Below are positions 26,872 to 43,968 of a DNA stretch of 52,993 bases, in pieces. The translations under genes were made by a program, and so were the position numbers. The notes under the pieces are model-generated. The model had not been told where the DNA came from, ran no database searches, and saw nothing but the letters and a program-made list of their open reading frames with translations. Position 1 is the first letter of the stretch; each line of letters begins with the position of its first letter. Origin of the DNA: Candidatus Yanofskybacteria bacterium RIFCSPLOWO2_01_FULL_39_28 (GTDB taxonomy: Bacteria > Patescibacteriota > Minisyncoccia > 2-02-FULL-40-12 > GWA2-44-9); the NCBI GenBank assembly GCA_001794635.1, contig MGKE01000008.1, positions 1 to 52,993 on the forward strand, in the 5' to 3' direction.

Positions 26872-28236
26872 CTACCCTGATTTGAGAAGGTCAATAACGG
26901 TTTGTTTGTCTGACCACGGTATCTTTTTATTCCTGGCTGCAGCCATAGACGTTTCCGAACCCTTGCCGGTAATTATCACCGTATCGCCTTTTTGAGCCAT
27001 AGAAATTGCTTTTTGAATTGCTTCTTTTCTATCTAAAATTTTACTTGTTACTTGTTGCTTGTTACTTGTTGCTGATGAAAAACCAGAAGCAATTTGATCT
27101 AAGATTTCTTCTGGTTTTTCATCATACGGGTCTTCGTTGGTCAAAATTATCTCATCACAATATTGAGCCGCCATCCGCCCAAACTCCGGTCTTTTCCACT
27201 TATCTCTTCCTCCTCCAGCTGCTCCCAAAACGCAAACGAGCTTATTTGCGTTTTGGGAGCCCTGAGCTTGTCGAAGGGCCAGTTCATTTTTCAACGTCTT
27301 ATATACTGCTTCCAAAGAATCCGGTGTATGGGCGTAGTCCACAACTACATTAAACGGCTCTCGTTGCAAGAACTCCATGCGACCGGGAATAAGTTTGATA
27401 GATTCAAGCGCTGGTTTCATGCTTGGCAAATCTATTTTATACATCGCTCCCACCGCCAACGCCGCCAGACAGTTCATCACATTAAATTCGCCCGCCAGAT
27501 TAATATCAAAGTAAGTGCCATATAATTCAAAGGAAGTTCCTTTTTGTGTTAATTTGACTTTATCAGCAACTAGGTCGCCCTTTTTCAGGCCAAAAAATAT
27601 TTTATGCTTAGCTGGAAAGTTACCGAACAAATCCGTGTGCTGATCGTCAGCATTAATTACATGAATATTTTTGGTCTTATTAAATAATTCCTGTTTGGCT
27701 TGATAGTAATTTTCAAAAGAACCGTGGCTTTCAAGATGTTCTTTGTGTAAGTTAGTAAAAACAGCGCAATCAAAACTAATTCCCAAATGTCTTTTTTGCT
27801 TAATACCTTCTGAAGTCACCTCCAAAACAAAATATTCACAACCAGCTTTTACTGCTTCGGCTAATAATTTTTGAAGCCGAAAACGGCCAGGCATGGTCAT
27901 TTTCAAAGTGTTCGGCCATTCTTTGTCTTTTATTTTGTATCCAAGAGAGCCACAAGCAGCGACTCCCCCCACTTGGACGTTCAACTTCACCCCACTTGGA
28001 CGTTCAACTTCCAAGTCAGCCTCTAAAATTTTTGTGATCAGATAAACAACCGTTGATTTACCCTTGGTTCCAGTTACACCGATAACTTTTAATTTCTTTG
28101 AAGGAAATCCATAAACCAAAGCTCCCGTGTAAGCGAGGATTGCGTGATAAGCAGGCTGAAAAAAATTAAAAACTGATTTTGGTATCAGCTTCTTGACACT
28201 AAATAATACTTTGTCTAATATGTTCTCTTTGAGCAT
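26872..28236 (-). CDS. murE: UDP-N-acetylmuramyl-tripeptide synthetase
   Basis: GVTGTKGKST, EVTS, TNL..EHLE.H, PGRME, DYAHTPD, NEDP, GKGSE. Confidence 0.95.
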   Translation of the reverse strand: MLKENILDKVLFSVKKLIPKSVFNFFQPAYHAILAYTGALVYGFPSKKLKVIGVTGTKGKSTVVYLITKILEADLEVERPSGVKLNVQVGGVAACGSLGYKIKDKEWPNTLKMTMPGRFRLQKLLAEAVKAGCEYFVLEVTSEGIKQKRHLGISFDCAVFTNLHKEHLESHGSFENYYQAKQELFNKTKNIHVINADDQHTDLFGNFPAKHKIFFGLKKGDLVADKVKLTQKGTSFELYGTYFDINLAGEFNVMNCLAALAVGAMYKIDLPSMKPALESIKLIPGRMEFLQREPFNVVVDYAHTPDSLEAVYKTLKNELALRQAQGSQNANKLVCVLGAAGGGRDKWKRPEFGRMAAQYCDEIILTNEDPYDEKPEEILDQIASGFSSATSNKQQVTSKILDRKEAIQKAISMAQKGDTVIITGKGSETSMAAARNKKIPWSDKQTVIDLLKSG

Positions 28237-28299
28237 AGAATAGTCAAAATATATCATAAATTAACCAAAAAGTAAGCCTTTTTCGGGCACGACTAACTG

Positions 28300-28328
28300 T
28301 TGACAAAGTAATATCAGTATGTTATACT
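28300..28328 (+). promoter_or_regulatory. Near-consensus sigma70 promoter of the large RNA
   Basis: TTGACA-17-TATACT with extended -10 TG. Confidence 0.85.
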
Positions 28329-28334
28329 TAAAAA

Positions 28335-28869
28335 ATACTTGTTCTTACTGGGCCTTATGGGGGTTCAGAAAAGGCTTCAAGAAACCAAGCTTAGCTTGAT
28401 AGAAGCCTTTTCCGAGTCCCGTAAACCCGAATAAAAAACTTCGGAGAGACTTGGGGCTTTAAGAAAGGAGGGGTAAAATTATGTCTTTCGCCGGGAAATC
28501 GGCGAGAAGAGCGAGTGGTTCCGTACACAAGCCGGAAACACAACCACCCCCTCTTCAGTGTAAAAAACCATTCTGGAAAGACGGGTCTGTGCGGACCTGA
28601 CATCACCGCACGGGAGAGCTTCGGCTCTCCCTCCTTCATCTTTGATCTTAATCTGAAATATATTAAGATTATAGATGAGGGGAGCAGGTACGGGAAGATG
28701 CGAGGCGAACTACCCGAACGCATCACCTGCCACCCTCAATCTCCCGTCCTTAGCAAATAGAAGCTGGACGGGCTAGAGACCAACCACTTTCGCCTAGAGC
28801 TAATAAGTGGGAGGGTACTGAATGCGGACATTCGGTGGTACGCCGGGCTAGCAGCCCGGCTTTTGTTTT
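28335..28869 (+). ncRNA. Unidentified large (~530 nt) highly structured RNA
   Basis: Promoter and terminator bracket back-to-back stems with G-U pairs and a C(UUCG)G tetraloop; no credible long ORF. Confidence 0.75.
28842..28869 (+). terminator. Intrinsic terminator
   Basis: GCCGGGC-TAGCA-GCCCGGC then TTTTGTTTT. Confidence 0.85.
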
Positions 28870-29799
28870 CTAAAAAATCTTTCTGGCTAGTGAGTAGACT
28901 AAGTACCAAAACCTTGAGACGACTAAATCAAATGAGCCGGGATATTCTTTTAAATCCCCTCCCCAACCAAGCTTGAAACGAGTTACACCTGGCCACTTTT
29001 TTGCATCAATTCCCCACAAGTCATAATTAGTAAGCTGGTAAGCTGGTAAGCTGGTAAGCTTAAGAAATTTAATAATGTTCCAGTGCATAAAATATGGCGC
29101 CATTAAGTTCTTATATTCCCTATCCATCGCTCCATGAAGATAATAAGCGAAGTTATGATATATCATAACCATTGCTCCTCCGATATATTTATCTTGAAGT
29201 TTCACTAGAAATAATTTAGTGATTAATTCTTGTCCTTCACGGAAAAAATTAAGCATTTTTTCGTAATACTCTTTTGAGTTGGTTGAGAATTGATCTTTTT
29301 TAGCCGTTTGTTTTAATAACTTCCAAAAGGTGTCAATGTCATTGCTTTCCTCAAGCACCAGACCCTTTTTTTCAGATAAGTTGATATTATATCTGGTTTT
29401 ATGATGCATTCGTGATAATAACTCTTCTTCTGATAAGTTAAGATTAATAATTACTGTCTTGGAGGGCTGAATTTGTTTTCGCGATCGTCTAAATCCTTTT
29501 CTATATAAAAGTTCCATAACTATGTCAGATAGCGGCTCAACTTTAACAAAAATTGCTTTTTCTTCTTTCGCTAAATATTTTAAATATTTAATAAAATTAG
29601 CTAACTCATTTTTGATTCCGCCTCTTATATCATCTAGCTTTACTTCTGGCCCGTGAGGTATATACAAATAACTTTTTCCAAACGGAAGATCATGCTTTAT
29701 TATATTGGCCCTGATCTTACTATCGTTAAATCTCCAGACTTTATGTCCAACACTTTCCTGAAACTTCGCCCACTCTTCCGTTTGTAGAAATGATTTCAT
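28870..29799 (-). CDS. FemAB/FemX family peptidoglycan bridge aminoacyltransferase
   Basis: SFLQ..W..F, Y.PHGP, KTRYNI, YDLWG, GVTRFK.GWGG. Confidence 0.92.
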   Translation of the reverse strand: MKSFLQTEEWAKFQESVGHKVWRFNDSKIRANIIKHDLPFGKSYLYIPHGPEVKLDDIRGGIKNELANFIKYLKYLAKEEKAIFVKVEPLSDIVMELLYRKGFRRSRKQIQPSKTVIINLNLSEEELLSRMHHKTRYNINLSEKKGLVLEESNDIDTFWKLLKQTAKKDQFSTNSKEYYEKMLNFFREGQELITKLFLVKLQDKYIGGAMVMIYHNFAYYLHGAMDREYKNLMAPYFMHWNIIKFLKLTSLPAYQLTNYDLWGIDAKKWPGVTRFKLGWGGDLKEYPGSFDLVVSRFWYLVYSLARKIF

Positions 29800-43895: not shown

Positions 43896-43968
43896 TCCGC
43901 CCAGTAGGAGTCGAACCTACGACCCTCTCGTTAAAAGCGAGCTGCTCTACCAACTGAGCTATGGGCGG
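43896..43968 (-). tRNA. tRNA-Lys(UUU)
   Basis: Cloverleaf CCGCCCA/TGGGCGG, loop CTTTTAA, GGTTCGACTCC; CCA not encoded. Confidence 0.95.

Follow-up and report, generated by a model that had tools for sequence, protein, structure and literature searches.

A probable gene for a large, modular structured RNA between murE and a FemAB-family gene in one genus of Candidatus Yanofskybacteria

Between the Mur ligase gene murE and a gene for a FemAB-family protein, the AT-rich genome of Candidatus Yanofskybacteria bacterium RIFCSPLOWO2_01_FULL_39_28 (designated G000 here; 815 kb in 15 contigs, 86% complete) carries a conspicuously G+C-rich stretch of DNA, and this locus raises the question of what is encoded there. 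We addressed it in positions 1 to 52,993 of contig MGKE01000008.1, a stretch of 52,993 nucleotides (nt) that we refer to as the window. A first-pass annotation of this DNA had proposed a large and possibly undescribed non-coding RNA (ncRNA). Our comparative analysis bears this proposal out at the level of sequence: no Rfam family matches the locus, its helices carry compensatory changes, and no open reading frame (ORF) is kept among its homologs. Window positions 28335-28869 on the plus strand, approximately 535 nt bounded by a promoter and a terminator, thus very probably represent a genuine gene for a structured ncRNA of a new family. This family is found in one genus of Candidatus Yanofskybacteria only. 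As to what the RNA does, we tentatively favor, at somewhat less than an even chance, the view that a gene of its own encodes a large and modular structured ncRNA of an undescribed family, which would act by engaging the start of translation.

The borders of the gene are well marked. Its promoter, which had been called near-perfect, consists of TTGACA (28300-28305), a 17-nt spacer ending in TG, and TATACT (28323-28328); it matches the consensus at 11 of 12 positions and possesses an extended -10 region on the plus strand. The intrinsic terminator on the same strand, previously described as strong, has a stem (28842-28860) of eight base pairs, seven of them G-C, followed by a T-run that extends to 28869. 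The G+C content amounts to 0.50-0.53 over positions 28400-28899, compared with 0.28-0.47 in the flanks, in keeping with the claim of a GC-rich stretch. Both neighbors are encoded on the minus strand, as had been noted: a Mur ligase (murE; 26872-28257; PF08245, PF02875) on one side, and a FemAB-family protein (28870-29799; PF02388) on the other. Since no gene follows the RNA on the plus strand, it is best regarded as a stand-alone gene and not as a leader. Within 28000-29200, we found no promoter-like or terminator-like site on the minus strand. The features of the RNA gene are as follows (all on the plus strand).

28300-28328, plus strand: promoter, as described above; the layout TTGAC(A/T)-17-TGn-TA(T/A)A(C/A)T precedes all six copies of the RNA
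28335-28359, plus strand: predicted 5' end, placed from the position of the -10 region, and leader with a GTTCTT-type motif that occurs in four of the six copies
28360-28420, plus strand: P1, the long 5' hairpin (7 pairs, bulged A and C residues, a further 11 pairs, then an internal loop and an apical stem)
28421-28588, plus strand: species-specific variable domain, absent from G003, with the AAGGAGGGG stretch (28465-28473) resembling a Shine-Dalgarno (SD) sequence, an ATG at 28481 and a 39-codon ORF
28589-28611, plus strand: hairpin X (GTGCGG/CCGCAC), which folds in all four species possessing it
28612-28631, plus strand: hairpin F (GGGAGAGC-TTCG-GCTCTCCC), present also in G001 with an inserted hairpin
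28633-28682, plus strand: the arm, a long hairpin (CCTTCATC...GATGAGGG) compared as 19 pairs in six sequences
28684-28730, plus strand: hairpin H (GCAGGT...ACCTGC), a variable expansion; a hairpin is present here in all five copies that reach this far
28732-28783, plus strand: CCCTC strand, hairpin I and a single-stranded TAGA-CAA stretch, all conserved
28809-28836, plus strand: SD-like GGGAGGGT (28809-28816), then hairpin ACTGAATG/CATTCGGT (28817-28836) holding an ATG at 28822
28822-28851, plus strand: nine-codon mini-ORF MRTFGGTPG, whose stop codon TAG (28849-28851) lies in the terminator loop
28842-28869, plus strand: intrinsic terminator GCCGGGC/GCCCGGC with T-run; all six copies end in a G+C-rich hairpin and a U-run

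Five other species of the same genus (G001, G002, G003, G004 and G006) have homologs that share the promoter, the core helices and a terminator. In a DNA search of 61 genomes, the matches, partial and collinear, were confined to this genus (G001, G003 and G006); the homolog of G004 came to light as an insert in a synteny search with the FemAB protein, and that of G002 through R1, a covariance model of the leader and the 5' hairpin that scores 58-101 bits in the six carrier species. R1 matches 6 of the 62 genomes of the family and 6 of the 105 genomes of the order, where the matches are confined to one of 49 genera; in a class-wide sample it recognized a single genome out of 151, namely G000 itself, and none of the other 150. 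The FemAB proteins of the six carrier species are only 59-74% identical. A pattern scan of genome contigs yielded five stretches, of which the three real ones are the copies of G001, G004 and G006, and a corresponding scan of metagenomes yielded two, one of which is real and has the same R1 score as the G001 copy. All 16 sequencing runs listed are DNA metagenomes. Nine DNA runs from groundwater or soil metagenomes contain at least half of the sampled words of the RNA, and further, more distant relatives were encountered in two other groundwater runs (X10 and X14; four runs compared). No match was obtained among 50,697 phage records, and none of three pattern matches in viral contigs was confirmed by R1. 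A DNA search of G000 revealed no paralogs, and the gene has no flanking direct repeats.

All five homologs outside G000 adjoin murE and/or the FemAB gene. In the carriers, the -35 region of the RNA gene lies approximately 30-90 nt from the murE start, and the RNA is placed between the FemAB gene and murE on the opposite strand; in G002 and G006, the FemAB gene is set apart from it by other genes, as is murE in G003. The shared core follows a fixed order: leader, P1, hairpin F, the arm (CYTCATC...GATGAGGG) directly after F, hairpin H, the CCCTC strand, hairpin I, the single-stranded TAGA-CAA stretch, and an SD-like purine stretch with a start codon. The overall size differs widely, with 396 nt in G002 (truncated), 540 nt in G000, 551 nt in G003, 640 nt in G004, 723 nt in G001 and 940 nt in G006, measured on excised stretches that include the terminator plus a few flanking bases. 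G003 represents the minimal form, its P1 being linked to the arm with hardly anything between them. Only G001, G003 and G006 (L004:1808-2081; L005:879-1090, minus strand; L006:1814-2099) have an extra 3' domain (approximately 200-290 nt), which includes highly conserved stretches and has a long hairpin at its end; it is absent from the locus in G000 and from the rest of that genome, and a model of it (R2) matches 3 of the 105 genomes of the order, which are these same three species. In G003 and G006, the extra domain contains an SD-like site followed by ATG-TAA.

Two of these loci contain further genes worth recording. Between the RNA and the FemAB gene of G006 lies an ORF for a TrpR-like protein of 145 amino acids (L006:2156-2593, minus strand; PF01371), with an AT-rich palindromic repeat of approximately 22 nt on either side. 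Upstream of the RNA in G003, the place of murE is taken by an ORF of 458 amino acids or more (L004:1-1374, minus strand) without a Pfam match.

The predicted fold is unusually stable. The minimum free energy (MFE) of the 535 nt is -213 kcal/mol, compared with -164 +/- 6.7 kcal/mol in 100 dinucleotide shuffles, none of which was as stable (z -7.4), and the 5' hairpin, hairpins X and F, the arm, hairpin H and ACTGAATG/CATTCGGT all lie where the first-pass annotation, which had spoken of almost continuous helices, had placed them. The reverse complement folds nearly as well (z -6.6). The more telling evidence for individual helices is their conservation. Across 18 pairs of P1 in six sequences, 96.3% of the cells are paired and five pairs have changed on both sides, a result reached by 2 of 500 shuffles; slid registers give 25-64% pairing. 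P1 also has many invariant positions, bulges included. The arm is paired in 92.9% of its cells, with three pairs (six cells) changed on both sides and 15 G-U cells, and again 2 of 500 shuffles reach its covariation score, slid registers giving 38-56% pairing. Since these counts were obtained with only six related sequences, the compensatory changes are to be read as support for the helices and not as proof.

The remaining helices vary in what they contribute. Hairpin X of G000 differs from the GCTGGG/CCCAGC of the other three species at three of its six pairs, on both sides in each case (the stems were aligned by hand). Hairpin F, compared as eight pairs in four sequences, is 96.8% paired and mostly invariant, and 128 of 500 shuffles score as high; its single two-sided change converts an A-U into a G-C pair in G004. 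At the position of hairpin H, sequence and length (21-80 nt) differ among the five homologs, and hairpin I (CCCGTCC at 28743-28749 with GGACGGG at 28766-28772) folds in five of five, with other base pairs in G004 and G001. In the contigs from runs X10 and X14, two G-U pairs of P1 and one in a G000-specific hairpin are replaced by G-C pairs. On this comparison of sequences, a conserved core consisting of P1, hairpin F, the arm, the CCCTC strand and hairpin I is held by compensatory changes, and peripheral domains come and go. A pairing of the leader (28336-28340) with 28471-28475 that appears in the MFE structure is unsupported, because three of its five pairs have changed on one side only in the X14 contig. 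The pseudoknot that had been proposed between 28524-28528 and 28558-28562, as well as the GGAGGGG/CCCCTCT pairing, are located in a domain that has no alignable counterpart in the other species. The motif ACGGG is present in four copies, as counted previously. A near-copy (12 nt, 92%) of the 3' strand of P1 (28403-28414) is found at window positions 28274-28285, upstream of the -35 region of the RNA gene; read on the other strand, it lies immediately before the murE start codon.

We assign the RNA to the plus strand because the promoter, the terminator and the G-U counts agree on it, the MFE being ambiguous in this respect. All six homologs have promoters and terminators that read on the plus strand, and P1 and the arm together contain 22 G-U cells versus 5 A-C cells, in accordance with the earlier observation that G-U pairs favor this orientation. 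A protein-coding function of the stretch can be set aside. Neither of the two longest ORFs, of 111 amino acids on the minus strand and 81 amino acids on the plus strand, has a Pfam match, and a six-frame comparison of the six homologs gave matches of 10-30 amino acids in several frames and on both strands, with no conserved ORF among them. These translated matches coincide with conserved patches of nucleotides, and the sole match of 66 amino acids has 29% gaps. Conservation of codons instead of base pairs had been named beforehand as an outcome that would refute the ncRNA; what emerged was compensatory changes in P1 and the arm with no ORF retained.

Is this RNA a known one? The cmscan check that had been suggested was carried out against Rfam 15, and it returned nothing at the locus at the gathering score; the single match in the window is a tRNA (43896-43968). 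At E <=10, the locus has 15 matches of 12-21 bits, which are short, hairpin-level noise far below the cut-off, and none of them is to RNase P RNA, transfer-messenger RNA (tmRNA), the RNA of the signal recognition particle (SRP), a T-box, OLE, ROOL, GOLLD or an intron. This agrees with the absence of RNase P, tmRNA, SRP and group II intron hallmarks that had been asserted from the sequence alone. An Rfam search of the loci of three relatives likewise produced no match.

RNase P RNA deserved a test of its own, since the type A model RF00010 finds it in 38 of 41 relatives and finds none in G000, G003 and G006; the best RF00010 match in the G000 genome is located elsewhere and has 8.6 bits, compared with the 100 bits or more required of a match. 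That the RNA at the murE locus would be a very divergent universal RNA overlooked by Rfam, either RNase P RNA or SRP RNA, could draw on these gaps and on the failure of RF00169 and RF01854 to find an SRP RNA in G000. This explanation has been largely refuted, and we give it next to no credence. G001 possesses an RNase P RNA of 107 bits on contig C9 together with a syntenic copy of the new RNA on contig C15, and five RNase P RNAs from the genus and family (G001, G002, G004, G005 and G007), compared with G000 by blastn, matched nothing at the locus; their best matches anywhere in G000 were of approximately 25 nt (E 0.002). Because the RNase P RNA gene of relatives is often situated at contig ends, an assembly gap is the simpler reading of its absence. 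With respect to SRP RNA, there is no match at the locus at E <=10, and RF00169 finds none in G000 and 30 relatives, 31 genomes of the order in all, so that the models, or the first-look filter of the search tool, may simply fail in this order. An SRP RNA that escapes detection in the order and an RNA restricted to one genus are unrelated matters. A normal tmRNA is encoded elsewhere (G000:C14:80456-80806; 142.9 bits), ARAGORN detected no gene within 28000-29200, and neither ARAGORN nor cmscan reported anything tRNA-like or SRP-like at the locus. 6S RNA gave no match at the locus, and its model finds none in G000. The T-box model RF00230 found nothing at the locus (its best match in the genome, on contig C11, has 9.9 bits), and there is no downstream gene on the same strand that a T-box might control. 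Two side observations concern RNase P itself: G000 has rnpA (C14:154553-154864) but yields no RNase P RNA to RF00010, and the model scores a mere 39 bits in G002 and 46 bits in G004, weak matches whose displayed 5' parts lack the P4 5' strand that G001, G005 and G007 possess.

Several known systems provide points of comparison. The RNA resembles OLE, ROOL, GOLLD, raiA and HEARO RNAs in its size (400-950 nt), in having a gene to itself, in its many helices, in a G+C content above that of the genome, and in combining a conserved core with variable expansions; it differs from them in that their covariance models give no match even at E <=10, that no link to phages or prophages was found here, and that its distribution comprises one genus of Patescibacteria. 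The size class suggested by the first-pass annotation, that of OLE, ROOL and GOLLD, is therefore apt as far as size goes, but this likeness is one of size and style only, and no model match accompanies it. With RNase P RNA, it shares the character of a large structured RNA that has its own promoter and peripheral helices varying between species; it has no match to the model and no similarity to the RNase P RNAs of its own genus, and coexists with one of these in G001. Leader-peptide attenuators are alike in having an SD sequence, a start codon and a short ORF that runs into an intrinsic terminator (28822-28851 versus 28842-28860, and the same in G004), but attenuators and T-box leaders are followed by a gene on the same strand, which is missing here, and this RNA is several times longer. 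The GGTGG-N-AC sequence just before the terminator presumably resembles the acceptor-binding bulge motif of T-boxes; RF00230, as stated, gave no match at the locus. tmRNA, too, combines structure with a short internal reading frame, yet its tRNA-like domain was not found here by ARAGORN, and the frames of tmRNAs are not known to have SD sites or start codons, whereas the modules described below have both. Finally, the RNA would be transcribed against a probable femAB-murE operon in the manner of cis-antisense, excludon-like RNAs, a class of which extensive conserved structure and modular domains are not features. Literature searches, in the portions of the sources available, brought up nothing on large or structured ncRNAs in Patescibacteria, the Candidate Phyla Radiation or Yanofskybacteria. 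Together with the lack of an Rfam match, this argues for a new class of RNA with a narrow distribution.

The one recurrent feature outside the helices offers a lead to function. It consists of a purine stretch such as AAGGAGG or AGGTGG and an ATG or GTG 5-9 nt further on. The six RNAs contain 14 such sites on the plus strand and seven on the reverse complements, compared with 5.0 +/- 2.2 in 300 shuffles (maximum 13), and the start codons persist at a spacing appropriate for an SD sequence although the spacers themselves differ. One or two such modules are present per copy, and their mini-ORFs span 2-39 codons. The shortest read MR-stop (G002 and G006) and M-stop (G003 and G006, in the extra domain), the longest is the 39-codon ORF of G000, and the rest have 6-15 codons. 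The position of the 3' module is of particular interest. The distance from its AUG to the following G+C-rich hairpin is 20-21 nt in four of five copies. In G004, the mini-ORF MRSFGGTPG, like its counterpart MRTFGGTPG in G000, runs into the terminator stem and stops in the RNA's own terminator loop; provided that the frame is kept, the X14 contig, a third short-form relative, has GGT TGA at the end of the mini-ORF. In G003 and G006, the stop codon directly precedes hairpin K1, the first of the extra domain, 21 nt after the AUG.

These features lend themselves to a model in which the folded RNA would engage the translation start machinery through its modules of SD sequence plus start codon. The 3' module would lie 20-21 nt before a G+C-rich hairpin that, in the short forms G000 and G004, is the terminator of the RNA itself, and a ribosome loaded there would melt this hairpin. 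Access of the ribosome, governed by the fold upstream, might then decide whether transcription ends at 28869 or runs on, in antisense direction, into the FemAB gene. Because a ribosome that terminates at this mini-ORF would cover the hairpin, we place such a ribosome-engaging, terminator-coupled mechanism first among the specific mechanisms, as a possibility to be held with clear reservation. A considerably more speculative extension, which we regard as improbable in its full form, is that of a new class of large RNAs with a ribosome read-out, in which a variable sensor body would gate a mini-ORF with SD sequence and AUG and thereby switch from the terminated 535-nt RNA to an antisense read-through transcript directed against FemAB. 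FemAB enzymes consume aminoacyl-tRNA, and three of the nine codons of MRTFGGTPG specify Gly; the element could thus couple the state of tRNA charging or of translation to the synthesis of cell-wall cross-bridges.

A number of observations weigh against this mechanism or against a weighty role of the RNA. The 14 sites are not independent, since they are homologous between species, and any G+C-rich helix will have G-rich strands. Only the G000/G004 pair shows conservation of the peptide, and even here one of the 'synonymous' changes is also compensatory in the terminator stem. An antiterminator helix upstream of the terminator, or a complement there to the 5' strand of the terminator, was not noticed by eye, no dedicated search having been made, and no gene follows the RNA on the same strand. 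Folding of the whole molecule does not prefer the plus strand: the MFE favors it by 4-6 kcal/mol in two of the six homologs, is within 2.3 kcal/mol in two, and favors the minus strand by 9-13 kcal/mol in the other two. The multiway junction that had been drawn with ACCCTC/GAGGGT as its closing helix survives only in part; its strands are in place, but the pairing of ACCCTC (28732-28737) with the SD-like GGGAGGGT is no better than in composition-matched shuffles in three of five species and modestly better in G001 and G006 (of 300 shuffles, 170 were as good in G000, 83 in G004, 94 in G003, 18 in G001 and 34 in G006). Moreover, R1 finds no match in G005, a genome that is 90% complete, and the copy of G002 stops after the arm, where seven U follow, so that the RNA appears dispensable. 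The absence in G005 and the truncation in G002 weigh against any essential role.

Nearly as likely as the ribosome-engaging mechanism is that the product of the same stand-alone gene functions purely as a folded RNA, be it a protein-binding scaffold, a component of a ribonucleoprotein or a ribozyme, and that its SD-like stretches are simply the purine strands of G+C-rich helices and its mini-ORFs are accidental; this is a serious contender, even if it, too, falls well short of being probable. A conserved core with variable peripheral domains is usual in functional structured RNAs, and this is the pattern observed; the invariant positions of P1, bulges included, would suit a site for binding a protein. 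The lack of conservation of the mini-ORF peptides is what one would expect from accidental frames, and in the X14 contig, which represents a close relative, the 39-codon ORF beginning at ATG 28481 has taken four substitutions, all of which change an amino acid, so that this ORF is not conserved. What a purely folded RNA leaves without explanation is the excess of start codons at SD spacing in spite of differing spacers (14 versus 5.0 +/- 2.2), and the stop codon that falls into the terminator loop in G000 and G004, and in the X14 contig if the frame is kept. Nor is a gene for a partner protein linked to the RNA, its neighbors being ordinary cell-wall genes.

The setting of the gene invites two further explanations. 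In the synteny search with the FemAB protein, which gave 30 loci, of which 29 were counted after G009 had been dropped because its locus is cut off, the FemAB gene and murE abut in 15 and are separated by more than 150 nt or by other genes in 14. Since the two genes abut so often, they probably form one operon, and a read-through transcript across femAB-murE probably exists. The RNA gene, reversed inside this operon with its -35 region close to the murE start, might then be a cis-antisense element that interferes with the read-through transcript and sets the level of murE or FemAB. Such an element would accord with the lack of minus-strand promoters and terminators in 28000-29200, as a result of which murE may need read-through, and with the 12 nt in the 5' region of murE that repeat the 3' strand of P1. 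We nevertheless consider it unlikely, given that antisense action needs no set of approximately ten helices with compensatory changes, that the RNA does not directly adjoin the FemAB gene in G002 and G006, or murE in G003, with other genes lying between, and that neither the extra 3' domain nor the variable domains would have a role. More unlikely still, but not negligible, is a neutral or selfish insertion, a decaying and lineage-specific remnant of a mobile or phage-derived RNA that came to rest in a hot spot and has no present function. The narrow distribution (one of 49 genera of the order), the loss in G005, the truncation in G002 and the unrelated inserts at 14 of 29 femAB/murE junctions would all be in keeping with decay. 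Against this, promoter, terminator and helices have been kept in six species with FemAB proteins as divergent as 59-74% identity, no match was found in phage records or viral contigs, and there are neither paralogs nor flanking direct repeats. As an observation in its own right, the femAB/murE junction (window 28258-28869; loci L034-L062) is a hot spot of insertion, the 14 non-abutting junctions being occupied by extra genes or by unrelated and largely AT-rich sequence, from 290 to more than 1500 nt in length.

To our knowledge, only a handful of bacterial RNA classes longer than 400 nt have been described, each of which opened new biology, and we know of hardly any exploration of the ncRNA content of the Candidate Phyla Radiation. 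The copies reported here constitute a natural series for structural work, extending from a minimal form (P1 to arm) via forms with one or two extra domains to a truncated one, and they raise the issue of a link between a structured RNA, the loading of ribosomes and the RNA's own terminator. The narrow distribution limits the reach of these findings, and the RNA may represent a regulator peculiar to this lineage and not a class of wide occurrence.

Next to the RNA gene, inside the ORF of the FemAB-family protein, an 8-base unit is repeated in tandem in approximately 3.5 copies (window 29030-29059).

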